Positions 15,560 to 42,895 of a stretch of DNA of 64,000 nt are shown here, one piece after another. The notes below the pieces were generated by a model, which did not search any database, was not told the origin of the DNA, and worked only from the letters and a program-made list of their open reading frames with translations. The stretch's first letter is position 1. Each line of letters opens with the position of its first letter. This DNA is from Candidatus Latescibacterota bacterium. Its GTDB lineage: Bacteria > Latescibacterota > UBA2968 > UBA8231. A program made the position numbers and the translations under genes. The stretch spans positions 128,001 to 192,000 of the forward strand of contig CBDETY010000003.1 of NCBI GenBank assembly GCA_965243025.1, written 5' to 3'.

Positions 15560-15575
15560 TGCAAACGCGGTGCCA
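15560..15575 (-). promoter_or_regulatory. Sigma54 promoter of amtB-glnK
   Basis: Minus strand TGGCACCGCGTTTGCA, consensus match. Confidence 0.9.
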
Positions 15576-27379: not shown

Positions 27380-28215
27380 TGGGCCGCGGACCAGGGGCAG
27401 GACGCCACCTGTCGACCGGGCGGGCGGTGCGGGGCCGTCGAACCGGCTCCCCGGCTCGCGCCCCGTTCCCGCCGCGGGCCCTCGCCCTGGCCTGGCTGGG
27501 GGCCGCGGCGACCGCCTGCGTGTCGCTGCCGCCCGACCTCGTGTACCAAGTGGCGTTCGCGCCGCGGCCGCAGCAGCTCGCCGAAGAGGATTTCTACTTC
27601 GACCCGGAGGACAGCACCACGGTGTTCCAGCGCGGGGGCTTCCGCCTCAAGCTGCGCCACCTCGGCGACCGCGAGCTCAACGAGGAGTACGCCCGCTTCA
27701 CCTACCGCGAGCCGAACCTCAACCCCTTCACCTACGGCCGCGACCGCGACCGCGACCTCGGGTACTCGCCGCCGCGCTTCACCGTTTTCGAGATGACCGC
27801 GGTCAACCAGACCTTTCCCAAGGTCATGGTCGATCCGGCGCGGATGACCCTGCTCACGGACCGCGGGGACCGGCTTCAGTACTGGTCGGTGCGCAAGCGG
27901 GACGCGCCCAACAGCTTCGAAGCCTACTACATGGAGCGCCGCGGCCAGGGCGGCAACGAGGAGCACTATTTCAACGAAAGACTCGGAATCGTGCGCGAGT
28001 CCCTGTACAGGCGGAACACCTTCGTCTTCAAGGGGGAGAGCTACTCGGGAAAGGTGGTCTTCGGACCGCTGCACCCCGGCGTCCGGCAGGCGACGGTGAA
28101 TGTCGAAGGCATCGTCCTGCGGTTCGACGCCTTCGACGTCCCCGGGGAAACGGCGGGGGCGTCTATGACCTTCGCCGTGCGCCAGCGCGTACTGAAAGCT
28201 GAAACGTCCCCTTGA
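27379..28215 (+). CDS. Putative lipoprotein (start uncertain)
   Basis: Hydrophobic stretch ending AATAC; NLNPFTYG, PPRFTVF. Confidence 0.6.
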   Translation: MGRGPGAGRHLSTGRAVRGRRTGSPARAPFPPRALALAWLGAAATACVSLPPDLVYQVAFAPRPQQLAEEDFYFDPEDSTTVFQRGGFRLKLRHLGDRELNEEYARFTYREPNLNPFTYGRDRDRDLGYSPPRFTVFEMTAVNQTFPKVMVDPARMTLLTDRGDRLQYWSVRKRDAPNSFEAYYMERRGQGGNEEHYFNERLGIVRESLYRRNTFVFKGESYSGKVVFGPLHPGVRQATVNVEGIVLRFDAFDVPGETAGASMTFAVRQRVLKAETSP

Positions 28216-28387
28216 TTGAAGCCGAGGGATCGGTTTCTTTGCGGATCGAAATCAGAGAATCAGACATGGGCCTGCGTTGAAACCTGACTGAACGAGGTGG
28301 TTTTGCAGCATTCTACCTGACCGCAACGAACCCTTGCGGACCTTCCGCAAATTCTCGGCCGGGCACTCCCATCGGTGACGGGCGCAC

Positions 28388-29494
28388 ATGCTCGATCTCT
28401 CTCAGCCCCGCATTCTCCTCGAGTTCGTTCTCCTCTCCGGTCTTCTGACTGCCGGCTGCTACACCGCCTACACCGACATCCGCTTCCGGCGCCTGCCCCA
28501 CAGATGGGTTTACGGCCTTCTCGGGGCCGGCCTCCTCGGACAGTTGATGTTCCTCGACCTGCTGGCGACGAACTGGACGAACATCGTCCTCGTCTTCGCC
28601 GGCGGCTTCGTCGTCTCCTACCTCCTCTACGCCTACGGGTTCTGGGCGCCGGGGGACGCCAAGCTCTACTGGGCCGTCGTCGTTGCCCTTCCTCCGAGCC
28701 TGGTGCCCGTTCACGACGCCTTCTCGATGAACGATCCCCTGTGGGCGATCTTCATCAATTCGGTGGTCCTCAGCTTTCTCTTCATCGCCGGGCTGCTGGT
28801 TTCCAGCCGCAGGAGCCGGTCGCGGCTCGCCGCTTCGATCCGGGAAGCCCGCCTCGATGCCAGGTCCCTTCTCCGGACCGGGGCCCGGGCCGTGGGCCTG
28901 GCCGGGATCGCGCTCATGGCAACCGCCTTCGTCATCGAGCGCCCGATGGCGGTCACCGAGAACCTCCTGATCCTCATGTTGCTGTTCCTGGCGTCGGAGC
29001 GTCTGGTCCGGCCCCCGTACGAGAGCCTGTACGTCTGGCCGGGCGCCGCAGGCTGGATCTACCTGTCCTGGATCACCGGTTCCTGGCTCGACCACCTCAT
29101 TGTCGCGGCGCTGGGCGCGGCCATCATGGCCGCCTTCTTCTTCATCCGCGACTACTACTCCTCGGCTTTCGTTCAGGGCCTCGCCGTCGACGACCTGCGA
29201 CCGGGACTGACGCCCCACAGGTCCCTGTACATGGAGAAGGATCCCGGCACGGGGGGGCGGCGCTACACCCTCGGCGATGCCGGGGGGCAGGACCGGCACA
29301 CCCTGTGCAGGGCCGGCGAGCCGTTGACCGCCGAAGACGTGTCCCGGCTCAGGCAGGTCAAAGCGGGAGGCGCCCTCGAAGGAATCGGCGACCGCATAGA
29401 GATAGAGGGGGCCATTCCCTTCGCGCCCTTCATCACCGCGGGCACGGCGGTCACCGTACTGGCCGCCGGAACCATGACGAGGCTCTTGCCATGA
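28388..29494 (+). CDS. A24-family (EppA/FlaK-like) prepilin-type aspartic peptidase with extra TM helices
   Basis: YTDIRFRRLP (Asp1), WAPGDAKL (GxGD-like Asp2), many TM segments, C-terminal LTAEDV...IPFAPFITAG. Confidence 0.75.
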   Translation: MLDLSQPRILLEFVLLSGLLTAGCYTAYTDIRFRRLPHRWVYGLLGAGLLGQLMFLDLLATNWTNIVLVFAGGFVVSYLLYAYGFWAPGDAKLYWAVVVALPPSLVPVHDAFSMNDPLWAIFINSVVLSFLFIAGLLVSSRRSRSRLAASIREARLDARSLLRTGARAVGLAGIALMATAFVIERPMAVTENLLILMLLFLASERLVRPPYESLYVWPGAAGWIYLSWITGSWLDHLIVAALGAAIMAAFFFIRDYYSSAFVQGLAVDDLRPGLTPHRSLYMEKDPGTGGRRYTLGDAGGQDRHTLCRAGEPLTAEDVSRLRQVKAGGALEGIGDRIEIEGAIPFAPFITAGTAVTVLAAGTMTRLLP

Positions 29495-30093
29495 ACGTGA
29501 AAGACACGGACAACCGGCGTCCCTGGATCGTGCCGGCGGCCGTCGCCGCGACGGTCGGGATCCTGCTCAGCGCGGCGCTCATCGTCGCTTCGAAGCGCTA
29601 CGCTTCCGAAGAGATCTGGACGGACGAGCAGTTCAAACCCCTGGTCGGGAAGCTCGCGCCGTACTTCGAGCGGGCATCGGTCGCCCACGGAACGGTGAGC
29701 AACGAGGATTTCTCGGGGGAGCCGTACGTGCTCTTCTTCGGGGACCCGGGCTGTTCCGCCTGCGACATGATGTACCACGTGCTGCAGGAGGCCGACCAGG
29801 AGCTCGACATCCTCTACATCGGCGCCGGCGACAGCCTGCGGCTGGTCGAGAAGACGGATTCGCTGGGATTCCGCTTTCCCATCCTCTACGACCCGGCGAA
29901 CGAGGTCCGGGAGCTCTTCGGTGTCGACGCCACGCCGACCTCCCTGGTGATCGGCGCCGATGGACGGGTAGAATCCGGCGCCGCCGGGTCGATCAGCGCC
30001 GGCCGCGTCGTGGAGAAACTCCATTCCGAGAAGCAGATGAAGGAGGGATTGATCTGGAACCTTCTGAACCGGGACTCCGGCGGGCGCGGTTGA
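29491..30093 (+). CDS. Membrane-anchored TlpA/redoxin-family protein (CSAC)
   Basis: N-terminal TM; GKLAP.F, LFFGDPGCSAC, FPILYD, GVDATPT; ATGA coupling. Confidence 0.8.
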   Translation: MNVKDTDNRRPWIVPAAVAATVGILLSAALIVASKRYASEEIWTDEQFKPLVGKLAPYFERASVAHGTVSNEDFSGEPYVLFFGDPGCSACDMMYHVLQEADQELDILYIGAGDSLRLVEKTDSLGFRFPILYDPANEVRELFGVDATPTSLVIGADGRVESGAAGSISAGRVVEKLHSEKQMKEGLIWNLLNRDSGGRG

Positions 30094-30602
30094 TCGGCGG
30101 CGCCCTTCTCGCCGTCACGCTCCTGTTCCTCGTCCTGTTCTCGGACAGGATCCCCGACAAGCTGACCGCCGTTCTCCCGGCTGAACCGGAGACTTCCGGC
30201 CTGCCTCCGGGGGCCGAGGTGCCTGCGTTCGACCTGCCGGACATGGACGGCGACAGGGTGACCGGCGGCGACCTCGGCGACGGCCCGACAGCCCTGGTCT
30301 TCGTCACCTCCACCTGCCCCTATTGCGGGGAGCTGTTCGCCGGCCTGCGGGATCTGGAGGAAGGGGATGGGGACCTGCTGTTCATCTCCGCCGGGGGCCT
30401 GGCCGAAGGCGCACTGGTGCGGGAAAAGCTCGGGGGGCATTGGCCTGTGCTCTTCGATTCCACGGGGGCGGCATCGACTGCCTTCGAGATTCAGGTGGTG
30501 CCGACCGTGTACGTGGCCGAAAACGGAAAAATCGCTTCCCTGGCGCAGGGAATGCCCCAGGCCCTGGAAGCGGTGCAGACAGCGCTCAGGCGAGGAGGTT
30601 GA
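30090..30602 (+). CDS. Membrane-anchored MauD/TlpA-like redoxin (CPYC)
   Basis: GLPPGAEVPAFDLPDMDG, LVFVTSTCPYC, IQVVPT; TTGA coupling. Confidence 0.8.
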   Translation: MIGGALLAVTLLFLVLFSDRIPDKLTAVLPAEPETSGLPPGAEVPAFDLPDMDGDRVTGGDLGDGPTALVFVTSTCPYCGELFAGLRDLEEGDGDLLFISAGGLAEGALVREKLGGHWPVLFDSTGAASTAFEIQVVPTVYVAENGKIASLAQGMPQALEAVQTALRRGG

Positions 30603-30642
30603 CAATGCCGAAGTTTCAGAGGTTGACAATGCCGAAGTTTCA
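30595..30642 (+). repeat. Perfect 24-bp tandem repeat
   Basis: GAGGTTGACAATGCCGAAGTTTCA at 30595 and 30619. Confidence 0.95.
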
Positions 30643-31003
30643 AAAGACTGAAGGGGAAGAGGAAGAACGCGAGCAGGAGGTGATAACCGCGTTCGTGCGC
30701 GAGAACTGCGACAGGATTCACTCGCGCGATGACGTGGCGCGAAAGTTGGGTGTCTGCCCGGAGACGGTTTCCAACCACATACGAAATGAAACGGGAATGG
30801 GTTTTACTGAGTTTCTGCATCAACACCAGGTCGCCAGGGCGATGGACCTGCTTGAATCGACCAGTCTCAACGTATCGCAGATTGCCGGTCAGGTGGGGTT
30901 CACGAGTCCGGAGCACTTCTCCCGGGTTTTCCACAAGGTGACCGGCTCACCGCCGACTCATTACCGTCTCGCCAAGAGGGCGGAGAAGGCAAACGCCGAG
31001 TAA
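30605..31003 (+). CDS. Stand-alone AraC-family HTH regulator (no ligand domain)
   Basis: LLESTSLNVSQIAGQVGFTSPEHFSRVFHKVTGSPPTHYR; 132 aa. Confidence 0.85.
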   Translation: MPKFQRLTMPKFQKTEGEEEEREQEVITAFVRENCDRIHSRDDVARKLGVCPETVSNHIRNETGMGFTEFLHQHQVARAMDLLESTSLNVSQIAGQVGFTSPEHFSRVFHKVTGSPPTHYRLAKRAEKANAE

Positions 31004-31007
31004 GGCG

Positions 31008-32807
31008 TTATGGTTCCTGTCCGGTGCCCGGCTCGGGGCGGCGCCGCTGGTTGTAGAGGATGTGGACCCCGCCGCCGCGATACCCCTCGTCGGTAACCAC
31101 GAGGTCGAGGTCTCCGTCCTCATCGAGATCTCCCGCCCATGCCTGGCCTCCTTCCCCCTTCAGTCTGTAGCACCCCTCGATCACCGGCAGGGCGCCCCGT
31201 TGCCCTTCGTAGACGATCACGCTGCGGCCGGAATAGAGGTTCCTGTTGACGACCACCGGGTCCGGGATCCGGTCTCCGTTCAGGTCCCAGGACCGCACCG
31301 AGGAGACGGTCTGGATCTCCGAATCGACCCAAGGGGTCATCTCCAGGCGGCCGCTGCCGTCGTTCACCGCCCACTTCAGACCCGGGTAGCGGACCGGGTA
31401 CCAGTTCGTCAGTCTTTCCGCAAGGAACAGCAGATCGAGGTCCCCGTCGCCGTCCATGTCGCTGACGTCGTCGAGCAGACCTTGGGAAGAATCGACAGGA
31501 ACAACTAGCGAAAGCGGTTCCCCGGTTCCAAGGAGGGCAAGGTCGCGGCTGATTCGGACCCGCATCGAATCCTTTGCTGCCGCCCGCGGCTGCACCCACA
31601 CCACGTCGAGCCGGCCGTTGCCGTCGACGTCCTTGACGGAGTGCACCAGGAACCCGGGTTCCTGGAAACGCGGCCCCTCGGTCACTTGGCCCCCCGGGCC
31701 GGCCAGCAGGATCGAGAGGCCGCCGACCGGCCGCGGGCCGGTCTCCCACAACCACGAGAACCAGACATCCTCGCGGCCGTCTCCGTTGTAGTCGGCAACT
31801 GCCAGTGGGGTCTCGTCCGGGTCGGTACTGAGACTTACCTCGTCGTATCGGCCCGAGCCGAGGTTGCTCAACCACAGACCGAGGCCGCCGATCGAGAACA
31901 GGATGTCGGCGACGCCGTCCTGATTCAGGTCGCCCGCGCCACCGAAGCGCAAGTAGAACCGCTCCTCACTCCTTGCCGGAGGGAACCAGTCGGAGACGGC
32001 AAACCTGCCGTCCTCTTGGTTCTCGACCTGGAGGAACCCCATGGACCTGTCTACGGCGGACTGCCAGGGCAGCAGAAGATCGAAGTCTCCGTCCCCGTCG
32101 AGGTCGGAAATGCCGGAGGGAGACCTCCGAGGCCCGTGAGGCTCGCCGATCCCTTCCTGGTCGAGAGGGAGGAACCGGCTTTCGGCGAATAGAGCGCCCC
32201 CTGTGCATGGGGGGGCCGTACCGGGGAGAGTTCCCCCGCGGTCCCGGAACCGGTCGACGAGCTCTATCTCTTCTATTTCAAGGAAGCGCGCGGCGTCTGA
32301 CTCCGGAAGACCGGAGCAGCGGCCCACCGCTACCCGGAGGTCTGTCAGGTTCTCGTCCCAGACCAGTTCCTCCCTGGTGAGATCGAACTCGACATCCGTC
32401 CAGGAGTCCGACAGAACCGTCTCGACTAGCAAAGCGAAGCGGCTTTTTCCCCGTGGTTTCGGATCCTGCCCCGGGTGCTGCTCGTTATGACTGTTCGTCC
32501 AGGTCAGAGCGACCGTGCAGTCCGTTCCCGGCGACCCGGGAAGACGGAGGCGTACCTTGGCGCGGCTGAACCGGTCCGACTCTAGGTTCAACCGCGGCGA
32601 CAGCAGAAGGGGAAGGCGGTGATCCTGCAGTTGCAGGGCAAACCGGAGCCTACCGTCTGCTGCCACCACATCAATAGGTGGTTGAAACCCAAGGGAGGGG
32701 GTTCGTTGGCGCACTTGCCAGCCCTGCAAGCCCGAGCTGAAATCCCACTTCGTGCCGAGCGCAGGACCAGCCTGCAGTGCAACGATCAGAACAGCGGACC
32801 GAAGCAT
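31008..32807 (-). CDS. Secreted FG-GAP/VCBS beta-propeller protein (paralog C, lacks FlgD-Ig tail)
   Basis: Signal; WDF...QGW N-domain; repeated DLDGDGDFD/DLNQDGVAD/DYNGDGRED/DVDGNGRLD/DLNGDRIPD; AAGGA RBS before ATG 32807. Confidence 0.8.
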   Translation of the reverse strand: MLRSAVLIVALQAGPALGTKWDFSSGLQGWQVRQRTPSLGFQPPIDVVAADGRLRFALQLQDHRLPLLLSPRLNLESDRFSRAKVRLRLPGSPGTDCTVALTWTNSHNEQHPGQDPKPRGKSRFALLVETVLSDSWTDVEFDLTREELVWDENLTDLRVAVGRCSGLPESDAARFLEIEEIELVDRFRDRGGTLPGTAPPCTGGALFAESRFLPLDQEGIGEPHGPRRSPSGISDLDGDGDFDLLLPWQSAVDRSMGFLQVENQEDGRFAVSDWFPPARSEERFYLRFGGAGDLNQDGVADILFSIGGLGLWLSNLGSGRYDEVSLSTDPDETPLAVADYNGDGREDVWFSWLWETGPRPVGGLSILLAGPGGQVTEGPRFQEPGFLVHSVKDVDGNGRLDVVWVQPRAAAKDSMRVRISRDLALLGTGEPLSLVVPVDSSQGLLDDVSDMDGDGDLDLLFLAERLTNWYPVRYPGLKWAVNDGSGRLEMTPWVDSEIQTVSSVRSWDLNGDRIPDPVVVNRNLYSGRSVIVYEGQRGALPVIEGCYRLKGEGGQAWAGDLDEDGDLDLVVTDEGYRGGGVHILYNQRRRPEPGTGQEP

Positions 32808-32829
32808 GGGATTTCCTTTGCCCCTCCCC

Positions 32830-32875
32830 AAAAAAAAGGCTGGAGGGGCTATATGCTACCATCCCTCCAGCCTTT
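32830..32875 (-). terminator. Strong Rho-independent terminator after the peptide gene
   Basis: AAGGCTGGAGGG/CCCTCCAGCCTT stem running into T8 on minus strand. Confidence 0.85.
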
Positions 32876-32917
32876 CCTTGGCCTAGGATTTCCTAGGTGA
32901 TTTTTTTTGTCCTCTCT

Positions 32918-33214
32918 CTAGCCCGGGCAAGTGGACCCCCTGCACCCAGACTCATTACTAACAAAACCGCCGGATCTACAACACTTGTAAACCAAACGTT
33001 CTCCCCAAGGACAACAACCACCGTGCCAGTGCCAACTTCCGCAAGTGTAATCCACTGAAGGACAGCCTGTCGTGTGTGCCTCCGCAGGTTGGAAGGTGCC
33101 GAAGATCATACCTACGGCCAAAATTGCGACTAGGACGAATCCCAGGGAAATCCCTGTCTTCTCCGCGACAATGCCGCTGTCGGAGCCGAAGAACTCGATC
33201 AGTGATGTTTTCAT
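32918..33214 (-). CDS. Small secreted 8-cysteine peptide precursor (98 aa; ~52-aa core)
   Basis: RBS GGAGAGG; leader, hydrophobic stretch, AEA cleavage site; core C-X6-C-X8-CC-X9-CC-X11-C-X4-C; own terminator. Confidence 0.8.
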   Translation of the reverse strand: MKTSLIEFFGSDSGIVAEKTGISLGFVLVAILAVGMIFGTFQPAEAHTTGCPSVDYTCGSWHWHGGCCPWGERLVYKCCRSGGFVSNESGCRGSTCPG

Positions 33215-33488
33215 GGCATCCTCTCCATGCTGTGGGGAAACTTACCTCGTGGAAATGAATATGCGGCCGAGTTGTTAGGATGATCAACCCAAACAGTCAA
33301 AAAAAGTCTGATCCTTGGAAGAACTCAGGAACAAATGATGAAAATACATTCCAAATTTAAATGATATGATTAAATGAGGATATTCTGCCAATATACCAAA
33401 AATTTGATGAAAAAGTCACAGTTTTGGCAAAAAGTCTGGGAAAAGCTTTTTTTACTATTCGTGAGACTCAACTCACATACAGGAGGAC

Positions 33489-35708
33489 ATGACGATGCGG
33501 ATCCCTGCCATCGCAGCATTCCTCGCTTTGACCACCTCCTCCGGGGCGATCACCTGGGAGTTCGAGGAGGACACCCAGGGCTGGCAGATCCGGCTCGGGG
33601 GCTCCAGCGGCAGCTTCTTCCCACCTCTCGATGCAGAGGTCGAGGAGGGGGTGCTCAGGATCCCTGTTACGGAACAGTTCCTTGAGCAGGTCGATTTCGG
33701 GGGCGAAGGCTATCTCTATGACCGCTATCCCGTCCTGATATCGCCGCAGCTGAACCTCGATTCCGGGCTCTTCGACCGGGTCGAGATTCGCCTGCGTTTC
33801 GTGCATCCGGATCCGGTTGCGACGGGAGTGTTCCTTTCCTGGATAAATGACCTCGACGCCAGTGAGTTCGGAGTGTCCCATGTCGAGCTGCCGGGGATCC
33901 TGGTCCCCGCGGTATTCACCTCGGAATGGCAGGAGGTGGTGTTCCATTCTCTGGACGAGGAGGAGCAATGGGACTCGGATGCCACGTGGGGTGGGATTCT
34001 GGAGGAGATCCGGCTTTCCATCGACCTGTTCGAGAGCTCGGAAGAGCGCCGGGAACCGGTCGACCTGAGCGAGCTGCCGGAGTGGGTGGAGATCGACCGC
34101 ATCGTGCTGACCGGGGTAGAGGAGCGCTTGCAGGGGGAGCTTCCCCCTCCGGAAGTATCGGCAACCCATGCTCCCGGCCTGCTGTTCGGGCCGTCCCAAT
34201 TCGTACCGATGGGGCAGGAGGGGTTGGGGCGTGTTACAACCACCGGGTTTCCGGGAACGGGGATTGCGGACCTCGACGGGGATGGGGATCTCGATGTGCT
34301 GGTGCCTTGGAGTTTGTTCGACCCGGATCGGTGTGGGTTCATGGCGGCGATGAACGACGGAACGGGCGTATTGAGCGAGACGTGGCGACCGGTGCCTGAG
34401 GTCTCGGTCGGGGGGCGGCCGTTCTACTTGCTGGGCGGATTGGTCGATGTCAACGGGGACGGACGCGTGGACCTGTTCTACCGTCACGTCGGGTTGGGGG
34501 TGTGGCTGACCGATGCGGAGGCCCCGGGGAGGTACGTCCACCAGGCGATCCCGGGCATGGGTCCGGACGACCAGGACGGGGACGGGATACACGACGGAAA
34601 CCCGAGATACCTCGACGACTTCGACGGAGACGAAGACGTCGACCTGCTGGTCTCGGTATACCGGTGGACGACGACAGGTGACTCTTTTCTGCGGCTGCTG
34701 CTCAACGATGGCGAGGGCGGCTATTCACCTGGAGACTTCTGGGAGTTTCCGCAGTACTGGGCGAGACGAGTGCGCGACTTCGACGGAGATGGGAAGCTGG
34801 ATTTGAGGTGGTTTCCCATCGATTCTCAGTACAATCCCCGGGCCCGGATCGTGATGCTGCTGAGCTACAACATCCTGGAATCAGGCACGGAGCAGACCTT
34901 CGAGATGGTGGTCGAGGACGCAAGTGGCCTGGATTTACCTATGCCGTTCGCATACGGGGACTTCAGCGGGGACGGGGCCTTCGACATGATCCTTCCCGGG
35001 AGGACGGTAGAGGAGTGGGGCAGGGACCGCCACAGCATGCTGATCGCGGTGAACGACGGCACTGACCAGCATTTCGAGCTCATGCCCTGGCAGGGGGAGG
35101 AGGTCGTGTACGACCACATCTCTGATTTCCCTACCAGCATTGACCTGAACGGAGACGGCCTGCTGGACGTGGTGGTGGCAAACCGCCACCGGCGAACCGG
35201 CCGGAACGTCATCGTCTACCTCGGCCAGAAAGACGGCTTTCCGATCGAGGAGGGGCGGTACGGGCTGGCAGGGTTCGGGAACGCGGTCTGGGCCGGCGAC
35301 CTCGACGCGGACGCAGACCTGGACCTGGTGGTGATCGACGGCCAGTACCGGGGCGGGGGGCTGCACGTGCTCTACAACCGGCTCGACCCGCCCACCGCAG
35401 TCGAGGTGTCCTCAGCGGCGGTTCCGGACGCCCATTCACTGGGGCAAGCCTACCCCAACCCCTTCAACCCCGACCTGGCGATTCCGCTGACTCTTGCCCA
35501 GGCTGAGCGGCAGGTAACGGTTCGCGTCTACAACAGCCTCGGGCAGGAGGTTCGGCGCTTGACCCATGGGCCCCTGGACGCGGGGCACCACTCCCTGGCC
35601 TGGGACGGCCGGGACCGCGGCGGTCACCCAGTGGCCTCCGGGAGCTATCTGCTGAAGGTCAGCGCCGGCGACTGGGAGGCGGCGCGCAAGGTAGTGAAGG
35701 CCCGGTAG
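33489..35708 (+). CDS. Secreted FG-GAP/VCBS propeller protein with FlgD-Ig/T9SS-like tail (paralog A)
   Basis: AGGAGG RBS; signal; DxDGDGDxD repeats; AYPNPFNP...VYNSLGQEV...WDGRD...SGSY. Confidence 0.85.
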   Translation: MTMRIPAIAAFLALTTSSGAITWEFEEDTQGWQIRLGGSSGSFFPPLDAEVEEGVLRIPVTEQFLEQVDFGGEGYLYDRYPVLISPQLNLDSGLFDRVEIRLRFVHPDPVATGVFLSWINDLDASEFGVSHVELPGILVPAVFTSEWQEVVFHSLDEEEQWDSDATWGGILEEIRLSIDLFESSEERREPVDLSELPEWVEIDRIVLTGVEERLQGELPPPEVSATHAPGLLFGPSQFVPMGQEGLGRVTTTGFPGTGIADLDGDGDLDVLVPWSLFDPDRCGFMAAMNDGTGVLSETWRPVPEVSVGGRPFYLLGGLVDVNGDGRVDLFYRHVGLGVWLTDAEAPGRYVHQAIPGMGPDDQDGDGIHDGNPRYLDDFDGDEDVDLLVSVYRWTTTGDSFLRLLLNDGEGGYSPGDFWEFPQYWARRVRDFDGDGKLDLRWFPIDSQYNPRARIVMLLSYNILESGTEQTFEMVVEDASGLDLPMPFAYGDFSGDGAFDMILPGRTVEEWGRDRHSMLIAVNDGTDQHFELMPWQGEEVVYDHISDFPTSIDLNGDGLLDVVVANRHRRTGRNVIVYLGQKDGFPIEEGRYGLAGFGNAVWAGDLDADADLDLVVIDGQYRGGGLHVLYNRLDPPTAVEVSSAAVPDAHSLGQAYPNPFNPDLAIPLTLAQAERQVTVRVYNSLGQEVRRLTHGPLDAGHHSLAWDGRDRGGHPVASGSYLLKVSAGDWEAARKVVKAR

Positions 35709-35720
35709 CGTCCCCGGGGC

Positions 35721-35800
35721 TCAGTTTGCACACGGGTTCGTGCTTACCCAAAAGGCCGGCCATCCCGGCGACCCAGATAGACGTGCCGGGTACAAACTGA
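35721..35800. repeat. Imperfect 15-bp inverted repeat between the duplicated genes
   Basis: TCAGTTTGCACACGG ... CCGGGTACAAACTGA. Confidence 0.6.
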
Positions 35801-35842
35801 ACCGGTTTTCACACCCCGGGCCATTCCCAGATACAGGAGGGT

Positions 35843-38065
35843 ATGGAAATGCGAACCGTAGCCATGGCGGCATTGCTTCTCGCTTTTACCACCTCCCCCG
35901 GGGCGATCACCTGGGAGTTCGAGGAGGACACCCAGGGCTGGCAGATCCGTCTCGGGGGCTCCTCCGGCAGCTTCTTCCCACCTCTCGATGCGGTGGTCGA
36001 GGAAGGGGTGCTCAGGATACCTGTTACGGAACAGTTCCTTGAGCAAGTCGATTACAGGGGCGAGGGCTATCTCTATGACCGCTATCCCGTCCTGATATCG
36101 CCGCAGCTGGACCTCGATTCCGGGCTCTTCGACCGGGTCGAGATTCGCCTGCGTTTCGTGCATCCGGATCCGGTGGCGACGGGAGTGTTCCTTTCCTGGA
36201 TAAATGACCTCGACGCCAGTGAGTTCGGAGTGTCCCATATCGAGCTGCCTGGGATCCTGGTCCCCACGGTATTCACCTCGGAATGGCAGGAGGTGGTGTT
36301 CCATTCTCTGGACGAGGAGGAGCAATGGGACTCGGATGCCACCTGGGGTGGGATTCTGGAGGAGATCCGGCTTTCCATCGACCTGTTCGAGAGCTCGGAA
36401 GAGCGCCGGGAGCCTGTCGACCTGAGCGAGCTGCCGGAGTGGGTGGAGATCGACCGCATCGTGCTGACCGGGGTGGAGGAGCGCCTGCAGGGGGAGCTTC
36501 CGCCTCCGGAGGTATCGGCAACCCATGCTCCCGGCCTGCTGTTCGGTCCGCCCCAATTCGTGCCGATGGGGCAGGAGGGGTTGGGGCGTGCTACAACCAC
36601 CGGGTTTCCGGGCACGGGGATTGCGGACCTCGACGGGGATGGGGATCTCGATGTGCTGGTACCTTGGGGGGCGTCCGGGCCGGATAGAGGCGGCTTCGTA
36701 GCGGCGATGAACGATGGAACGGGGGTGCTCAGCGAGGTCCACCGGCCGGTGCCTTCCAGGGCGGTCGACTTTCACCCCATTTACTACCTGGGCGGGTTGG
36801 CCGACGCCAACGGGGATGGTCTGGTAGACCTGTTCTACCGTCACGTAGGGTTGGGGGTGTGGCTGACGGATGCGGAGGCCCCGGGGAGGTACGTCCATCA
36901 GGCGATCCCGGGAATGGGTCCGGACGACCAGGACGGGGACGGGGTACACGACGGATTCCCCAAATACCTCGACGACTTCGACGGAGACGGAGACGTCGAC
37001 CTGCTGGTCGAGGTATACCGGTGGACGACGACGGATGACTCTTTTCTGCGGCTGCTGCTCAACGACGGGGAGGGCGGTTATTCACCTGGAGACTTCTGGG
37101 AGTTTCCGCAGTACTGGGCGGGGCCGGTGCGCGACTTCGACGGAGATGGGAACCTGGATATGAGGTGGTTTCCCATGGATGCTCTGTACAACCCCCGGGC
37201 AAGGATCGTGATGCTGCTGAGCTACAACATCCTGGAATCAGGCACGGAGCAGACCTTCGAGATGGTGGTCGAGGACGCAAGTGGCCTGGATTATCCTATG
37301 CCGTTCGCATACGGGGACTTCAGCGGGGACGGGGCCTTCGACATGATCCTGCCCGGTAGGCTGGTAAGGGAGGGGGGTAGGGACCGGCACAGCATGCTGA
37401 TCGCGGAGAACGATGGCTCCAACCAGCATTTCGAGCTCATGCCCTGGCAGGGGGAGGAGGTCGTGTACGACGACATCTCTGGTTACCCTACCAGCATTGA
37501 CCTGAACGGAGACGGGCTGCTGGACGTGGTGGTGGCCAACCGCCACCGGCGAACCGGCCGGAACGTCATCGTCTACCTCGGCCAGAAGGACGGCTTTCCG
37601 ATCGAGGAGGGGCGGTACGGACTGGCTGGGTTCGGGAACGCGGTCTGGCCGGGCGACCTCGACGGGGACGCAGACCTGGACCTGGTGGTGATCGACGGCC
37701 AGTACCGGGGCGGGGGGCTGCACGTGCTCTACAACCGGCTCGACCCGGCGACCGCGGTCGAGACGGCCTCGGCGGCGGTTCCGGACGCCCATGCGTTGGG
37801 GCAAGCCTACCCCAACCCCTTCAACCCCGACGTGGCGATTCCGCTGACTCTTGCCCAGGCTGAGCGGCAGGTAACGGTTCGCGTCTACAACAGCCTCGGG
37901 CAGGAGGTTCGGCGCTTGACCCATGGGCCCCTGGCCGCCGGGCACCACTCCCTTTCCTGGGACGGGCGGGACCGCGGCGGTCAGCCGGTCGCCTCGGGGA
38001 GCTACCTGCTGAAGGTCAGCGCCGGGGACTGGGAGGCGGCCCGCAAGGTAGTGAAGGCCCGGTAA
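35843..38065 (+). CDS. Secreted FG-GAP/VCBS propeller protein with FlgD-Ig tail (paralog B, tandem duplicate)
   Basis: Near-identical to 33489..35708 at DNA and protein level. Confidence 0.85.
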   Translation: MEMRTVAMAALLLAFTTSPGAITWEFEEDTQGWQIRLGGSSGSFFPPLDAVVEEGVLRIPVTEQFLEQVDYRGEGYLYDRYPVLISPQLDLDSGLFDRVEIRLRFVHPDPVATGVFLSWINDLDASEFGVSHIELPGILVPTVFTSEWQEVVFHSLDEEEQWDSDATWGGILEEIRLSIDLFESSEERREPVDLSELPEWVEIDRIVLTGVEERLQGELPPPEVSATHAPGLLFGPPQFVPMGQEGLGRATTTGFPGTGIADLDGDGDLDVLVPWGASGPDRGGFVAAMNDGTGVLSEVHRPVPSRAVDFHPIYYLGGLADANGDGLVDLFYRHVGLGVWLTDAEAPGRYVHQAIPGMGPDDQDGDGVHDGFPKYLDDFDGDGDVDLLVEVYRWTTTDDSFLRLLLNDGEGGYSPGDFWEFPQYWAGPVRDFDGDGNLDMRWFPMDALYNPRARIVMLLSYNILESGTEQTFEMVVEDASGLDYPMPFAYGDFSGDGAFDMILPGRLVREGGRDRHSMLIAENDGSNQHFELMPWQGEEVVYDDISGYPTSIDLNGDGLLDVVVANRHRRTGRNVIVYLGQKDGFPIEEGRYGLAGFGNAVWPGDLDGDADLDLVVIDGQYRGGGLHVLYNRLDPATAVETASAAVPDAHALGQAYPNPFNPDVAIPLTLAQAERQVTVRVYNSLGQEVRRLTHGPLAAGHHSLSWDGRDRGGQPVASGSYLLKVSAGDWEAARKVVKAR

Positions 38066-38107
38066 ACCCGGGTTCGTACCCGGTCCGGTCTCCCGGGCTG
38101 GGTGCCG

Positions 38108-38677
38108 TCACCCGCTCCCGGTGTCGAAACCGTCGGCGAGCGCCCGCAAAAGGGACTCGGGGTCGGCCTCGACGCGCAGCAGCGACCGGTGCCCGGGGCT
38201 GAGGAACTGCTGTTCGACCGCTTCGTCGAGGAAGGCGATCAGGTGGTCGAAATAGCCGCCCGTGTTGAGCAGCCCGACCGGTTTTGCGTGGAAACCGAGC
38301 TGCGACCAGGCCAGCGCCTCGAACAGCTCCTCCATGGTGCCGTACCCGCCCGGCAACGCCGCGAAGGCGTCCGAGCGGCGGGCCATGTGCGCCTTGCGCT
38401 CGTGCATGTCGCCGGCGACGATCAGTTCGTGCAGGTTTCCGTGGGCGGCCTCCTGCTCCTGCAGGGCGCGGGGGATCACACCGACGACGCGGCCCCCGGC
38501 TTCGAGAGCGGCCACGGCCACGGCCCCCATCAGCCCGACGTTCCCTCCGCCGTACACCAGTCCCATCCCCGAACGGGCGATGGTCCTGCCCAGGGCCTCG
38601 GCTTCGCGGCGGTACTCCTCTCCCCGGCCGGACTTCGAGCCGCAGTACACGCAGATGTTCCGGGTGGTTCCGTTCAT
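38108..38677 (-). CDS. LOG-family (TIGR00730) nucleotide phosphoribohydrolase
   Basis: ICVYCGS, LVYGGGNVGLMG, MHERK, LPGGYGTMEE. Confidence 0.92.
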   Translation of the reverse strand: MNGTTRNICVYCGSKSGRGEEYRREAEALGRTIARSGMGLVYGGGNVGLMGAVAVAALEAGGRVVGVIPRALQEQEAAHGNLHELIVAGDMHERKAHMARRSDAFAALPGGYGTMEELFEALAWSQLGFHAKPVGLLNTGGYFDHLIAFLDEAVEQQFLSPGHRSLLRVEADPESLLRALADGFDTGSG

Positions 38678-38949: not shown

Positions 38950-39489
38950 TTATCCCCCCATACCCGGTCGCGCGCCGGCAAGGGCGGCATCGGCGGGAAG
39001 GACCTGCCCGGCGTTTTCGGGGGTTGCCACAGGGGCTGAACTCAGCCGTGCGGACATCAACTCGCTCATCTCCCGGGCGGAAGGGGCGGCGAGAAGGAGG
39101 TGGACGAAGTCGCTGTCCCCGAAGGCCCCGGCGAGGAGGGAGAGGAGGCCGAGGTAGGGGCGCGGCGAGTCCATCGGCACGGCGATCACGCAGACCGCAC
39201 GCACCGCGCAGAGGTCGTCGCCGCTCGGGTAGTAGATCGGCTCGTCGCACACACCCAGGGCCATCCCCAGGCCGGTGACGCTGCGGGCGCGGGCATGAGG
39301 AAGAGCGATGGTGCCGCCTATCACGGTGCTGCCCAGGTTCTCCCGTTCGAGAACCAGCTGCAAGAAACTGAGGCTGTCGTTGAGCCGTCCGGCGCGGTAG
39401 AGGCGGTCGACGAGCTGTTTGATGGCGCCGATCTTGGAGTCGGAACGGAGACGGGGGACCATCATGGTCTGTTCGAGCAGACCGGACAT
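38950..39489 (-). CDS. PTS EIIA (Ntr/fructose-type) domain protein
   Basis: LERENLGST..G..IALPHAR phospho-His motif; start 39489 or 39561. Confidence 0.85.
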   Translation of the reverse strand: MSGLLEQTMMVPRLRSDSKIGAIKQLVDRLYRAGRLNDSLSFLQLVLERENLGSTVIGGTIALPHARARSVTGLGMALGVCDEPIYYPSGDDLCAVRAVCVIAVPMDSPRPYLGLLSLLAGAFGDSDFVHLLLAAPSAREMSELMSARLSSAPVATPENAGQVLPADAALAGARPGMGG

Positions 39490-39780
39490 GGCGGGAAAGG
39501 CCCCGGGAGGGTTGCCTGCTGCAAAATCTGCGTCGCTGTCCGCGGCGTCGCGGAAAATCATCGTAACTGGTTGTTTATTCTTGCTTAATGAAAATCGGAC
39601 AGCAGGGGTTGGCGGGCTGCATTAATTGCACGGTATCGAGAAGAGTCGGGGCAATGACCTTAACAATGTTGGCGGGCCCAACTCCCGGTGAGATTCCGTG
39701 GCCCGAGGCGGGGAATCGCGGTGGTTTTCGGAATTCCGGGCGGGCAGTTGCCGGCGCAACCCCCGGCCGCCAACGATCTA

Positions 39781-39796
39781 TGCAAACTCGGTGCCA
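39781..39796 (-). promoter_or_regulatory. Sigma54 promoter
   Basis: Minus strand TGGCACCGAGTTTGCA; TGCA-N5-TGCA palindrome upstream at 39907-39919. Confidence 0.8.
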
Positions 39797-39934: not shown

Positions 39935-41326
39935 TCAGGTCAGCTTGTACTGCTTGAGCTTGTACTGCAGGGAGCGCACGCTGATTCCCAGCATCGCGGC
40001 GGCCTCGCGGCGGTTCGAGGTCACCCGCTGCAGCGTCTGCCGGATCAACTCCGCTTCCACGTCCTCGATGGAGGAGCCGAGGGAGATGGTGAACTCCCCG
40101 ATTCCCGCACCCGGCTGGTCGATCGCCGCCTCCCCCAGGGCCTCGCGCAGGTGCCGGGGCTCGATGGTGTTCTCGGGGCAGGTGATCACCAGGCGCTGAA
40201 TGATGTTGCGCAGCTCGCGCACGTTACCCGGCCAGTGGTAGGAGACGAAGAGGTCGACGGCCTCCCTGCCGATCTTCTTGCGGGGCTGGTCGTAGGCCCG
40301 GCAGGCCTCGTCGAAGAAGGTCTCGACGAGCAGCGGGATGTCCTCGCGCCGCTCTCTCAGGGGGGGGACGTCGATGGGCACGACGTTGAGGCGGTAGAAG
40401 AGATCCTCGCGGAACTCCCCCTCGCTGACCGCGGTTTCGAGGTGGCGGTTGGTGGCGGCGATGACGCGCACGTCCGCCTTGTGGACCCTGGTGTCGCCGA
40501 GCGGCTGGAACTCGCGGTTCTCGAGGGCGCGCAGCAGCTCGACCTGGTTCTTCAGCGGGATCTCGCCCACTTCGTCGAGGAACAGGGTGCCCTTCTCGGC
40601 CAGGGCGAAGCGGCCGGCCCGGTCGACGTGGGCCCCGGTGAAGGCGCCGCGCTTGTGGCCGAACAGCTCGCTGCCGAACAGGTCCTGGGTGAAGCCGCCG
40701 CAGTTGACGGGAACGAAAGGCCCCTCCTTCCGGCGGCTGCGCTCGTGGATGGTGCGCGCGATCAGCTCCTTGCCGGCCCCGGTCTCCCCCCTGATCAGCA
40801 CCGGAACGTCGGACAGGGCCACCTGCTTGACGGTGCGCGTCGCCTGCTGCATGGAAGCGCTGCGGCGCACGATGCGCCGGAACGGGTCGTCGCTGTCGCC
40901 GCGGCCGAGGCGGTCGTGCAGCTCCCGGTTCTCGCGCACGAGCCGGACCCGGTCGAGGGCGCGGTTGACGATGAGGCGGACGTGGGTCAGGTCGACGGGC
41001 TTGGTGACGAAATCGAAGGCCCCCTTCTTCATCGCCTCGACCGCGGTATCGACGCTGCCGTGCGCGGTGAGGATGACGACGTTCGATTCGGGGTGGCGCT
41101 CGCGGATTTCCTCGAGCAGGTCCATTCCCGAGACACCCGGCATGCGCAGGTCGAGGAGGATGACGTCGAAGGCTCCCTTGCGCAGCCGGCGGCGCACCTC
41201 CCGGGCGTCGGAGGCGGTCTGGAGGTCGAGACCCGGCTCCTGCAGGGCGTCCTGCAGCCCTTCGCGGATGAAGACCTCGTCATCGGCGATGAGGAGGCGC
41301 GCCCGCGAGCTGCCGTGGTCTTTCAT
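39935..41326 (-). CDS. NtrC/AtoC-family sigma54 response regulator
   Basis: REC (ADDE, LDLRMP, TAHG, KP), GETGAGKE, GAFTGA, HTH. Confidence 0.93.
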   Translation of the reverse strand: MKDHGSSRARLLIADDEVFIREGLQDALQEPGLDLQTASDAREVRRRLRKGAFDVILLDLRMPGVSGMDLLEEIRERHPESNVVILTAHGSVDTAVEAMKKGAFDFVTKPVDLTHVRLIVNRALDRVRLVRENRELHDRLGRGDSDDPFRRIVRRSASMQQATRTVKQVALSDVPVLIRGETGAGKELIARTIHERSRRKEGPFVPVNCGGFTQDLFGSELFGHKRGAFTGAHVDRAGRFALAEKGTLFLDEVGEIPLKNQVELLRALENREFQPLGDTRVHKADVRVIAATNRHLETAVSEGEFREDLFYRLNVVPIDVPPLRERREDIPLLVETFFDEACRAYDQPRKKIGREAVDLFVSYHWPGNVRELRNIIQRLVITCPENTIEPRHLREALGEAAIDQPGAGIGEFTISLGSSIEDVEAELIRQTLQRVTSNRREAAAMLGISVRSLQYKLKQYKLT

Positions 41327-42105
41327 GTTTGCCGGTTTTCCGAAGGAACGGCGAGGGGAAGGCGAACGGACACCGTGGTTCCCGCTCCCTCCTCGCTCTC
41401 CACTTCAAGGCTGCCCTGGTGCTGGTCGATGATCCGTTGGGCGATGGAGAGCCCCAGTCCGGTGCCCGTGTCCTTCGTAGTATAGTAGTACTCGAAGATC
41501 CTCTCCAGGTCGCCGGGAGGGATGCCGCAACCCCGGTCGCCGATGGTCACCAGGGCGCTGCGGTCGTCCGCGGCCCCCAGGCGGATCTCGACGAGCGCGC
41601 CGCTGCCGCGGGGCTCACCGCCGGCCTCGCCGCAGGCCTGCATGGCGTTGATCAGGAGGTTGAGGAACGCCTGGCTCAGCAGGTTCTCGTCGGCGTCGAT
41701 GACCGCGGCCGGCTCCCCGTCCCCGCCGTGAAACTCCAGGGCGATTCCGCGCTCCCGCGCTTCCGGCTCGATCAGTTCGCGGAGGCGGGCAAGCAGCTCG
41801 GAGAGCGATACCCGCGCCAGGTGCAGCGCCGGCGGCCGCGAGAAGCGCAGGAAGTTCTGCACGATCCGGTCGAGCCGGCGCAGCTCGGCGCGCGCCGTGT
41901 CGAGCCGTTCGCCGGCGCGCTCGCCGGAGCCGGCCCGCAGCTCCTCCTGCAGCAGCTGCAGCTGGATGTCGATCGCTCCGAGGGGATTGCGGACCTCGTG
42001 CGCGACCGAGGCGGCGAGGCGGCCGAGGGCCGCCATCCTGTCGCCGAGCAGGATCTCCCGCTCGCTGCGCCGCTCTCCTTCTTCCCGCCCGCCGGTTTCG
42101 CTCAT
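41323..42105 (-). CDS. Histidine kinase core (HisKA + HATPase) with no sensor domain
   Basis: AHEVRNPL, NLLINA, DRGCGI, TTKDTGTGLGL. Confidence 0.85.
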   Translation of the reverse strand: MSETGGREEGERRSEREILLGDRMAALGRLAASVAHEVRNPLGAIDIQLQLLQEELRAGSGERAGERLDTARAELRRLDRIVQNFLRFSRPPALHLARVSLSELLARLRELIEPEARERGIALEFHGGDGEPAAVIDADENLLSQAFLNLLINAMQACGEAGGEPRGSGALVEIRLGAADDRSALVTIGDRGCGIPPGDLERIFEYYYTTKDTGTGLGLSIAQRIIDQHQGSLEVESEEGAGTTVSVRLPLAVPSENRQT

Positions 42106-42157
42106 TGACAGGTTTTCCGCCGCGGGATAGGGTTGCCGCGCGGCTCGGTTCAACAGG

Positions 42158-42895
42158 TTGAAAGGGGTGGTCTTGGCTGACGATACGGAATCGGTACGGG
42201 CTCGCAAGCAGCGCATTCAGCAGATGTTCAACGCCATCGCCGGGCGCTACGACCTGCTCAACCACCTGCTGAGCGGCGGCGTCGACTTCTACTGGCGCCG
42301 CCGGGCCCTGGCTTCGGTGCGCCGCCGCGGCCCCGGCCGCGTCCTCGACCTCGCCACCGGCACCGGGGATTTCGCGCGCGCCGCCGGCCGCCTCGCCCCC
42401 GGCCGCGTCGTCGGGGTGGACGTCGCCATCGACATGGTCCGCATCGCCCGTGCCAAGCTCGGGGACGCCCCCGGGGGCAGAGGCCCGGACCTGTTGGCGG
42501 GGGACGCGGAGATGCTGCCCTTCCGGGACCGCAGCTTCGACCTCGTCACCGTCGCCTTCGGGGCGCGCAACTTCGGCAGCGTCGGCGCCGGCCTCGCCGA
42601 GGCGGAGCGCGTCCTCAGATCCGGAGGGGAGGTGATCGTCCTCGAGTTCACCGAACCGACCCTGCCGGGGTTCCGCCAGCTCTACGGCTTCTACTTCCAC
42701 CGCGTCCTGCCGCTCGTCGGGGGGCTGATCTCCGGAAACAGGGAGGCCTACTCCTACCTGCCGCGCTCGGTAGGCCGCTTCCCGCAGGGGAAGGAGTTCC
42801 TCGAGTTGATGGAAGCGGCCGGGTTCACCGGCACCAGGGCGACCCCCCTGACATTCGGTATCTGCGCCGTCTACGAGGGCCGCAAGTCCGATTGA
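42158..42895 (+). CDS. menG: Demethylmenaquinone methyltransferase (UbiE/MenG)
   Basis: MFNAIAGRYDLLNHLLS, LDLATGTGD, AFGARN, AYSYLP; start may be 42173. Confidence 0.92.
   Translation: MKGVVLADDTESVRARKQRIQQMFNAIAGRYDLLNHLLSGGVDFYWRRRALASVRRRGPGRVLDLATGTGDFARAAGRLAPGRVVGVDVAIDMVRIARAKLGDAPGGRGPDLLAGDAEMLPFRDRSFDLVTVAFGARNFGSVGAGLAEAERVLRSGGEVIVLEFTEPTLPGFRQLYGFYFHRVLPLVGGLISGNREAYSYLPRSVGRFPQGKEFLELMEAAGFTGTRATPLTFGICAVYEGRKSD

Follow-up and report, generated by a model that had tools for sequence, protein, structure and literature searches.

Peptidases of the A24 family possess two catalytic aspartates, the second of which lies in a GxGD-like motif. To our knowledge, they process only pilins, pseudopilins, archaellins and other substrates that depend on a filament machinery, and the literature covered here gives the same picture. 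What, then, could be the role of an A24-like peptidase in a genome in which no such machinery is detected? The question is raised by a locus of a Candidatus Latescibacterota bacterium (contig CBDETY010000003.1, positions 128,001 to 192,000; this whole stretch of 64,000 nucleotides is called the window, and coordinates refer to it unless another locus is named). Between positions 28388 and 38065, the window encodes a long A24-like peptidase, two thioredoxin-like redoxins, an AraC-type regulator, a 98-residue cysteine-rich peptide precursor and three FG-GAP propeller proteins. The answer that we favor, with a probability of about 0.7, is a pilus-independent pathway in which the A24-like enzyme cuts the leader of the precursor, the redoxins fold its cysteine-rich core and the peptide joins a secreted partner protein.

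The cassette is conserved and is not a chance neighbourhood, since its gene set recurs at three other sites of the same genome and in loci of relatives. The source genome (6.8 Mb, 3 contigs, 96% complete) contains four matches to the A24 model PF01478 and no others, all of the long (~360 aa) A24-like type, and each of the four copies lies near a thioredoxin-like gene and a leader-bearing peptide with eight cysteines. A hidden Markov model (HMM) of the peptide leader, based on stretches selected by motif with a script from the collected loci, gave six strong matches among the 93,392 six-frame open reading frames (ORFs) of the genome, five of them within 4.5 kb of an A24-like gene. As the HMM contains leaders of this same genome, the informative point is that the genome yields no further match.

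The same association is found at the scale of the phylum. Among 168 genomes, the peptidase was detected in 32 and the leader in 36; both are present in 32 genomes, the leader alone in 4, the peptidase alone in none, and neither in 132. Within genera the two are patchily distributed, with peptidase and leader in 18 and 20 of the 31 genomes of one genus, and in 5 and 5 of the 10 genomes of another. Neighbourhoods were compared in 52 peptidase loci, namely the three regions of the source genome together with L021-L031 and L037-L075 (L047, which overlaps L046, and the duplicates L032-L036 being left out). At least one leader ORF is present in 43 of these loci and thioredoxin-like ORFs in 43 as well, and gene order is conserved and co-directional across the loci of relatives. 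The link between peptidase and leader is thus specific. An earlier note, made from the letters of this DNA, had taken the A24 peptidase, the redoxins, the Cys-rich peptide and the FG-GAP proteins for one dedicated system whose genes should co-occur and keep their synteny in relatives; the counts and the conserved gene order support this, and an FG-GAP gene follows 25 of the 62 peptides considered below.

The cassette also appears to be independent of type IV filaments. The absence of pilus genes, first remarked for the window, extends to the whole genome, in which T2SSE (PF00437) and T2SSF (PF00482) have 0 matches and no Flp (PF04964) match exceeds the cut-off; controls of the T2SS searches were positive for both families in 13 of 14 reference genomes. 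The same family has 28 genomes with the peptidase; 24 of them likewise lack T2SSE, and several of these 24 are single-contig assemblies.

The features of the cassette are the following (bit scores are given with the model's cut-off where available; FG-GAP_3 is PF13517, with a cut-off of 26.9 bits met by all three FG-GAP proteins).

28388-29494, + strand: long A24-like (GxGD) intramembrane aspartyl peptidase, 368 aa (PF01478, 33.9 bits, cut-off 26.5).
29491-30093, + strand: membrane-anchored thioredoxin-like redoxin 1, C-S-A-C (AhpC-TSA, PF00578, 42.6 bits, cut-off 26).
30090-30602, + strand: membrane-anchored thioredoxin-like redoxin 2, C-P-Y-C, TTG start (AhpC-TSA, 33.8 bits; Redoxin, 29 bits).
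30605-31003, + strand: AraC-type helix-turn-helix regulator, 132 aa, DNA-binding half only (HTH_18, 77.5 bits, cut-off 33.6).
31008-32807, - strand: secreted FG-GAP propeller protein, 599 aa, with an N-terminal 'W-D-F...G-W' domain and without a type IX secretion system (T9SS) tail (FG-GAP_3, 67 bits); its ORF spans 31008-32831 and the ATG at 32807 is the likely start.
32830-32872, - strand: terminator-like hairpin (10-bp G+C stem) and T-run, which separate the peptide gene from the FG-GAP gene (folding energy compared with shuffles).
32918-33214, - strand: 98-aa precursor with 8 Cys (no Pfam or NCBIfam family).
33077-33214, - strand: precursor leader, residues 1-46 (leader alignment, orthologue comparison).
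32918-33076, - strand: precursor Cys-rich core, residues 47-98 with 8 Cys, and stop codon (orthologue comparison, model).
33215-33488, no strand: AT-rich divergent intergenic region with one sigma-70-like site (GC 0.45).
33489-35708, + strand: FG-GAP propeller protein with a T9SS C-terminal sorting domain, 739 aa (FG-GAP_3, 72.9 bits; FlgD_ig, 58.2 bits; TIGR04183, 28.3 bits, cut-off 23).
35843-38065, + strand: tandem paralogue of the 739-aa FG-GAP protein, with T9SS tail, 740 aa (FG-GAP_3, 69.3 bits; TIGR04183, 30.2 bits, cut-off 23).

The ORF listing and the domain scans recover all eight genes of the earlier note in their places, and its remarks on the gene junctions are confirmed by direct reading of the sequence: the peptidase stop and the redoxin 1 start overlap in ATGA (29491-29494), the redoxin 1 stop and the redoxin 2 start overlap in TTGA (30090-30093), and the AraC ATG comes 2 bp after the redoxin 2 stop. 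The peptide region is indeed richer in A+T, with a GC content of 0.45 at 33000-33499 and ~0.65 in the surroundings. The peptide gene has a ribosome-binding site of its own, GGAGAGGA, and is followed on its 3' side by the hairpin (-30 kcal/mol, z = -3.4, an equally good fold in 0/200 shuffles). This hairpin was missed by the consensus scan, presumably because of its 15-nt loop. A 24-bp direct tandem duplication (GAGGTTGACAATGCCGAAGTTTCA and a second copy, 30591-30638) is found across the AraC start, so that two ATG codons lie in frame as starts and the peptide M-P-K-F-Q is repeated.

In relatives, the cassette occurs in three co-directional layouts. The first has an activator, the peptidase, an FMN_bind-like protein, two redoxins and repeated peptide-then-FG-GAP units; the second has an activator, repeated peptide-then-FG-GAP units, the FMN_bind-like protein, the peptidase and two redoxins; the third has redoxins, peptidase, peptide and CBM9-like proteins. 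The window arrangement is a rearranged cassette, in which the peptidase operon converges on a peptide-then-FG unit and two tailed FG-GAP paralogues diverge from it.

Does the putative protease retain what an A24 enzyme needs? In the window peptidase, PF01478 matches residues 22-130 (38.5 bits in the genome-wide scan), and no NCBIfam model matches. By alignment, both predicted catalytic Asp positions are intact: D30, D90 (in W-A-P-G-D-A-K, a PGDxK motif) and F345-x-P347-F348 are invariant in 10 of the 10 relatives aligned over their full length. The AlphaFold model shows ~9-10 helices, with a small beta domain (residues 262-340) ahead of the last helix; the protein has four extra helices besides this beta domain. 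In VIA-align, the top match of the model is FlaK (3s0x_B; Z 12.0, root mean square deviation 3.6 Å, 168 of 186 residues), the runner-up having a Z of 6.1. Foldseek returned nothing from the PDB at E ≤0.001 for this model, and a PDB sequence search with the peptidase profile gave no match. The description of the enzyme as an EppA/FlaK-like A24 peptidase stands, on a PF01478 match over the cut-off and a FlaK-like fold.

The family is large when searched by profile. A single-sequence word search with the peptidase retrieved one protein only (92% identical), and a profile search (HMMER, 1.84 billion representatives) retrieved 1,821 proteins at E ≤1e-3, 589 at ≤1e-10 and 69 at ≤1e-30, mostly of 340-390 aa and aligned end to end. 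Two of the ten clusters looked up bear names, the automatic 'CpaA' and 'hypothetical protein' from a Woesearchaeota record. A scan of metagenome contigs yielded only 3 loci. One broken A24-like paralogue was observed in the second paralogous region of the source genome (G000:C3:5976130-5977142); it is readable over 288 aa, the rest lies in another frame with one TGA, and a fifth leader peptide stands beside it. The sixth leader match of the genome, L079:1615-1809 (-), lies outside the window and has a full leader that stops just past the helix. It adjoins a 450-aa transposase-like ORF, which is also found in one paralogous cassette, so this orphan precursor is probably an insertion casualty.

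The next question is that of the substrate. The earlier note had seen no conventional local substrate for the peptidase, but a local candidate is provided by the peptide, whose leader is conserved, Flp-like and built around an invariant glycine. Prepilin peptidases cut after a Gly, at the cytoplasmic face of the membrane, and this Gly is the key requirement of the A24 protease family. In Flp prepilins, a similar acidic D-E-S-G (E-S-G) motif precedes the cut. The precursors of the present family share one architecture, in which the motif F-x-x-S-[DE]-S-G-x-V is followed by a short polar linker, a hydrophobic helix, G-x-x-x-A-x-A and a Cys-rich core of ~45-55 residues. In the window peptide, the corresponding elements are F8-F9-x-S-D-S-G14 (Gly14 codon at 33173-33175), a helix at ~22-40 and A-E-A at 44-46. 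When 20 diverse leaders are aligned, the Gly is found in 20/20 and is the only invariant leader residue, the Phe being present in at least 90%; an A-x-A follows the helix in most leaders.

This A-x-A site gives room for a reading in which the linkage is real and the A24-like protein is not the cutter, having instead another substrate or a scaffold or transporter function, while signal peptidase I processes the precursor at A-x-A. The conserved motif could then be a docking signal and not a cut site, and the four extra helices and the beta domain of the peptidase also speak for it. We consider this highly improbable: the two catalytic Asp and F-x-P-F are invariant, the sole invariant residue of the leader is precisely the Gly on which A24 enzymes depend, and 32 of the 36 genomes with the leader also have the peptidase.

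The likeness to Flp also calls for another reading, namely that the peptides are pilin-like subunits that keep their helix and are either assembled into, or cap, a fibre made by an unrecognised machinery, or stay as periplasmic knobs anchored in the inner membrane. The A24/FlaK fold of the peptidase, the automatic 'CpaA' label of one family member and the acidic E-S-G motif ahead of a helix are in keeping with it. However, the genome is devoid of T2SSE, T2SSF and Flp over the cut-off, 24 of 28 peptidase-positive relatives have no T2SSE, and none of the 20 leaders matches Flp_Fap. The A-x-A site follows the helix, and a T9SS tail at the end of some leader-bearing proteins suggests that these leave the membrane. 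Pilin-like subunits are thus very unlikely, and processing of a non-pilin precursor by the A24-like enzyme is preferred.

One subfamily of peptides was observed to have two tandem leader motifs before the helix, L-L-T-S-E-S-G-V-V and F-L-A-N-E-S-G-F-I (in L050 and L053, and in proteins P0152, P0159, P0160, P0166 and P0175); its three database members labelled Toxin_2 are those mentioned below.

Leader and core evolve very differently. Among four orthologues of the window peptide, 33 of 46 leader positions are invariant vs 13 of 52 core positions, and 7 of these 13 are Cys. In tandem paralogues, the proportion of nonsynonymous differences (pN) is higher in the core than in the leader in 22 of 23 pairs. 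For nine young pairs (in L060 and L070), the ratio to synonymous differences (pN/pS) is 0.94-2.3 in the core, exceeding 1 in 8 of the 9, and 0-0.72 in the leader; these ratios are rough since each segment has only ~45 codons. The cores change rapidly around a constant Cys framework, the pattern to be expected of a ligand or toxin that interacts with other cells. Within the family, several Cys frameworks are found, with 4-14 Cys across substrates.

The earlier note had also called the peptide defensin/knottin-like, which for the window peptide is a conjecture. A precomputed Toxin_2 label (PF00451, scorpion-toxin/defensin-type) is attached to only 3 of the 39 database relatives, and the window peptide itself has no Pfam or NCBIfam match and belongs to no toxin family in these scans. 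The model of its core is a three-stranded sheet (predicted local distance difference test, pLDDT, 66-79). Structural matches are non-significant (best VIA-align Z 3.3; Foldseek E ≥0.88, with nothing from the PDB at E ≤0.001), and a weak, equally non-significant likeness to laterosporulin (Z 2.8; Foldseek E 1.3) is a lead only.

How would such cores be folded? Both redoxins have an N-terminal hydrophobic anchor and a CxxC motif, read in their translations, and both belong to the thioredoxin-like TlpA/ResA/AhpC-TSA superfamily by their PF00578 scores (42.6 and 33.8 bits, cut-off 26). Redoxin 1 (C-S-A-C) is ResA-like at 38.6 bits, below the cut-off. For redoxin 2 (C-P-Y-C), the best NCBIfam match is MauD (TIGR02661), with 27.3 bits for an equivalog cut-off of 188.6. 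Redoxin 2 is therefore not a MauD member, and the MauD-likeness first claimed for it comes down to the thioredoxin fold. In most cassettes, for example in L056-L073 of relatives and at L077:12271-12873 in the source genome, the peptidase has as its neighbour a conserved ~200-aa membrane protein that bears a CxxC and matches FMN_bind weakly (E 0.032, below the cut-off); this protein is absent from the window copy.

The match to MauD suggests yet another reading, in which the Cys-rich protein serves a propeller enzyme as its small subunit and bears the cofactor, like MauA/MauB (methylamine dehydrogenase) or QhpC/QhpB (quinohemoprotein amine dehydrogenase), and the redoxins act as MauD does. A small Cys- and Trp-rich protein adjoins a beta-propeller here, the adjacent AraC regulator has a weak QhpR-like match (41 bits, cut-off 250), and radical S-adenosylmethionine (SAM)/SPASM enzymes are encoded beside the peptidase in two distant loci. 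Yet the MauD score is far from its cut-off, hypervariable cores (13/52 invariant positions, pN/pS mostly close to or above 1) are a misfit for a conserved catalytic cofactor site, the partner family is replaced by CBM9-like proteins in sister cassettes, and no MauG-, MauE- or radical-SAM-like gene is present among the domain matches and ORF calls of the window cassette. We hold this to be the least probable of the readings weighed here.

The partner proteins are the last element of the proposed pathway. For 62 small leader ORFs, the next gene on the same strand within 500 nt is an FG-GAP gene in 25 cases, a CBM9-like gene in 13 and neither in 19, the locus edge being reached in 5. Peptide-then-FG pairs are often in tandem (L057, L060, L069, L070 and L071, with three pairs in L060). 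As a gene neighbour of the peptide, the propeller of the earlier note is therefore recurrent but not universal. The FG-GAP proteins of relatives cover the same N-domain, propeller and tail as those of the window, and the 599-aa protein, which has no T9SS-tail match, aligns over its full length with 19 relatives. The 739- and 740-aa proteins are 97% identical over the N-domain, 88% over the propeller and 96% over the tail; conservation is lowest in the propeller for 5 of 6 FG paralogue pairs and highest in the tail.

The CBM9-like label comes from an ESM Atlas feature search only (scores 0.94-0.97, PF06452 on 13-94% of cluster members); a Pfam scan of these proteins (E up to 0.1) and a search of PDB sequences with their profile both gave no match. 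A domain shared by the FG-GAP and CBM9-like families was considered and is unsupported (hhalign probability 0.2%).

Cargo of the T9SS needs a C-terminal domain, and the secretion system itself is encoded in the genome, with two PorU (621 and 615 bits, cut-off 420) and one SprA (107.8 bits). Fusions of the leader to Cys-rich proteins of greater size (280-344 aa, 15-21 Cys) with a C-terminal T9SS domain are found at L064:11810-12841, L065:7878-8717 and L068:6847-7839; the tail of the first matches FlgD_ig with 44.9 bits for a cut-off of 27.

Tandem peptide-then-partner pairs with fast-evolving cores may also be read as toxin-immunity arrays. The peptides would be bacteriocin- or defensin-like toxins and the FG-GAP or CBM9-like proteins their immunity or scavenger proteins, peptidase and redoxins still being in charge of maturation. 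The propeller as the most variable part of the FG paralogues, the Toxin_2 labels and the faint laterosporulin likeness would fit. Immunity proteins known so far, however, tend to be small and to reside in the cytoplasm or the membrane. The partners here are 700-aa T9SS cargo, 19 of the 62 peptides have no such neighbour, and the window peptide matches no toxin family. We regard such arrays as rather unlikely, although less so than the other readings set against the leader-processing pathway.

Taken step by step, the leader-processing pathway would run as follows. The 98-aa precursor would insert into the inner membrane so that its N-terminus stays inside and its Cys-rich core lies in the periplasm. 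The A24-like peptidase would cut the cytoplasmic leader after the invariant Gly of F-x-x-S-[DE]-S-G, in the manner of prepilin and Flp peptidases, which cleave behind a Gly. Both thioredoxin-like proteins, anchored in the membrane, would form or shuffle four disulfides, a step to which most relatives would add the weakly FMN_bind-like protein, and the core may be released at the A-x-A site that follows the helix. The peptide would then associate with the secreted protein encoded beside it, FG-GAP here and CBM9-like in sister cassettes, and T9SS-tailed partners could carry the tail-less peptide across the outer membrane. We infer each of these events (cleavage after Gly14, folding by the redoxins, partner binding and export riding on the T9SS) from the comparisons above.

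Several points weigh against this pathway. Confidence in the peptidase model is middling (pLDDT 67.6). None of the 20 leaders matches Flp_Fap (PF04964) at E up to 1, and the leader Gly lies ~7-10 residues ahead of the hydrophobic stretch, whereas in pilins it is immediately adjacent. With an A-x-A after the helix, an ordinary signal peptidase could free the core without any A24 step. In the 4 leader-only genomes, the peptidase is absent even at E 1e-3, and the weight of the phyletic match is overstated because kindred genomes do not count as independent samples. Nor is a partner obligatory, since 19 of the 62 peptides have no FG-GAP or CBM9-like gene downstream. Finally, the window's own FG-GAP gene next to the peptide encodes no T9SS tail, and a terminator-like hairpin separates the two genes.

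The regulatory genes beside the cassette vary between loci. AraC-like ORFs are found in only 4 of the 52 peptidase loci, and a protein of ~800-1,140 aa stands beside the cassette in 16 of 52; the one copy scanned has a two-component regulator propeller and a sigma-54 activator domain. As the cassettes of relatives follow a sigma-54 activator, a sigma-54 promoter was sought upstream of the window peptide gene, and none was found; the window has 18 sigma-54 matches for a chance mean of 16.3, and the sole one at this locus is inside the peptide ORF. A sigma-70-like site faces the peptide gene (33390-33419, -), a weak indication as one such site occurs in 28000-38500 with 1.2 expected by chance. 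Elsewhere in the window, two perfect sigma-54 consensus matches (TGGCAC-N5-TTGCW) are located at 39781-39796 (-) and 15560-15575 (-). The former is upstream of a phosphotransferase system EIIA-type gene (38950-39561, -). At 1.9 kb past the last FG-GAP gene, the - strand encodes an NtrC-type sigma-54 response regulator (39935-41326) together with a histidine kinase (41323-42216).

How far does the system reach? Related loci are found in metagenome-assembled genomes (MAGs) of Candidatus Latescibacterota and Gemmatimonadota and, more distantly, in an Anaerolineales MAG and in archaeal MAGs. The Anaerolineales locus (L039) encodes the peptidase, three leader-bearing Cys/His-rich peptides and a radical SAM/SPASM enzyme (L039:2547-3986), and in an archaeal locus (L040) a radical SAM/SPASM enzyme (L040:209-1642) stands beside the peptidase. 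In a Woesearchaeota locus, a 210-aa Cys-rich ORF with the motif F-L-M-D-E-S-G lies ~1.1 kb from the peptidase gene. These distant loci suggest that the peptidase-leader pair is an old core and that the cross-linking chemistry is exchangeable. A 1,512-aa ORF with 180 Cys was also noticed at L040:5416-9954, a few genes from the archaeal A24-like gene.

A wider proposal can be framed on this basis, which we put forward as tentative and, taken with all its parts together, doubtful. Long A24-type GxGD peptidases might form an unrecognised and widespread class of leader peptidases for ribosomal Cys-rich peptides. This class might span bacteria and archaea (~589 clusters at 50% identity), need no type IV filament and recognise a shared F-x-x-[SD]-E-[SD]-G leader. 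It might be coupled either to thioredoxin-type, possibly flavin-dependent, folding or, in the Anaerolineales and archaeal MAGs, to radical SAM/SPASM cross-linking. In the sponge-associated lineage, the peptides might bind their cognate FG-GAP or CBM9-like proteins and exit on the T9SS signal of the partner, thereby forming diversifying ligand-carrier pairs aimed against, or towards, host or neighbour cells.

The source lineage is apparently sponge-associated. Parts of positions 28000-38200 are present in runs labelled as sponge metagenomes, and contigs of one sponge metagenome DNA run show 0 differences over pieces of 175-250 nt. In one library labelled as a sponge metatranscriptome, contigs match portions of the genes for peptidase, redoxin, FG-GAP protein and peptide at ~90-98% identity; they are no proof of transcription and may derive from a relative.

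The system is conserved and, within the literature covered, undescribed. This literature concerned prepilin peptidases, RiPP (peptide made by the ribosome and modified after translation) leaders, bacterial defensins, Latescibacterota and sponge symbionts, mostly outside subscription journals, and no such system is described there, in line with the earlier 'undescribed'. Within the text covered, the words prepilin, A24, aspartic and aspartyl occur 0 times in a RiPP leader-protease review of 2023 (PMC10885120); a survey of bacterial defensins has 0 of peptidase, gene cluster or thioredoxin (PMC11561630); papers on sponge-associated Latescibacterota/PAUC34f have 0 of prepilin, pili or FG-GAP (PMC12993501, PMC7081726); and A24 enzymes appear in a pilus or type II secretion setting only (PMC4858521, PMC7084401).

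If true, an A24 subfamily working without filament machinery would represent a new job for GxGD proteases and, for the biology of peptide natural products, a new type of leader protease. The shared leader gives a mining handle on a large, fast-evolving family of disulfide-rich peptides, some of them defensin- or toxin-like by Pfam label, from uncultured and apparently sponge-associated bacteria. Tandem peptide-partner pairs also suggest a route by which small folded peptides might cross the outer membrane via the T9SS.

Four known systems help to situate the cassette. With type A cargo of the T9SS, it shares two of three window FG-GAP proteins that pass TIGR04183, and some leader-bearing Cys-rich proteins with a tail (FlgD_ig). 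In contrast, the small peptides and the adjacent 599-aa FG-GAP protein have no tail, and the peptide would have to ride on a partner. The MauD/MauA/MauB set of methylamine dehydrogenase resembles it in that a thioredoxin-fold accessory, a small disulfide-rich protein and a beta-propeller are encoded together. Here, however, MauD membership fails, the propeller is of the FG-GAP type and is swapped in sister cassettes, and the cores are not conserved.

RiPP and bacteriocin cassettes, as well as conotoxin-type families, offer a further parallel, with a conserved leader, a hypervariable core and tandem precursors beside processing genes. The same peptidase family stands beside radical SAM/SPASM enzymes in the Anaerolineales and archaeal loci. 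Unlike RiPP leaders, the leader here includes a membrane helix, and disulfide formation is the only modification predicted in this phylum.

Finally, the pair formed by an Flp prepilin and TadV/CpaA in Tad pili, within the A24 family of PilD, FlaK and EppA, shares with the cassette the A24 domain, the two Asp, F-x-P-F and the FlaK-like fold, together with a candidate substrate in which an acidic S-E-S-G with an invariant Gly precedes a helix. TadV/CpaA has ~150-170 aa, whereas the enzyme here has ~360 aa with extra helices and a beta domain. The genome lacks an assembly ATPase, a platform protein and an Flp over the cut-off, and the candidate substrates, with no Flp_Fap match among the 20 leaders scanned, have an A-x-A site and a hypervariable domain with 4-14 Cys. 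Unlike the Flp pair, the present cassette is coupled to thioredoxin-like proteins and to secreted partner proteins.

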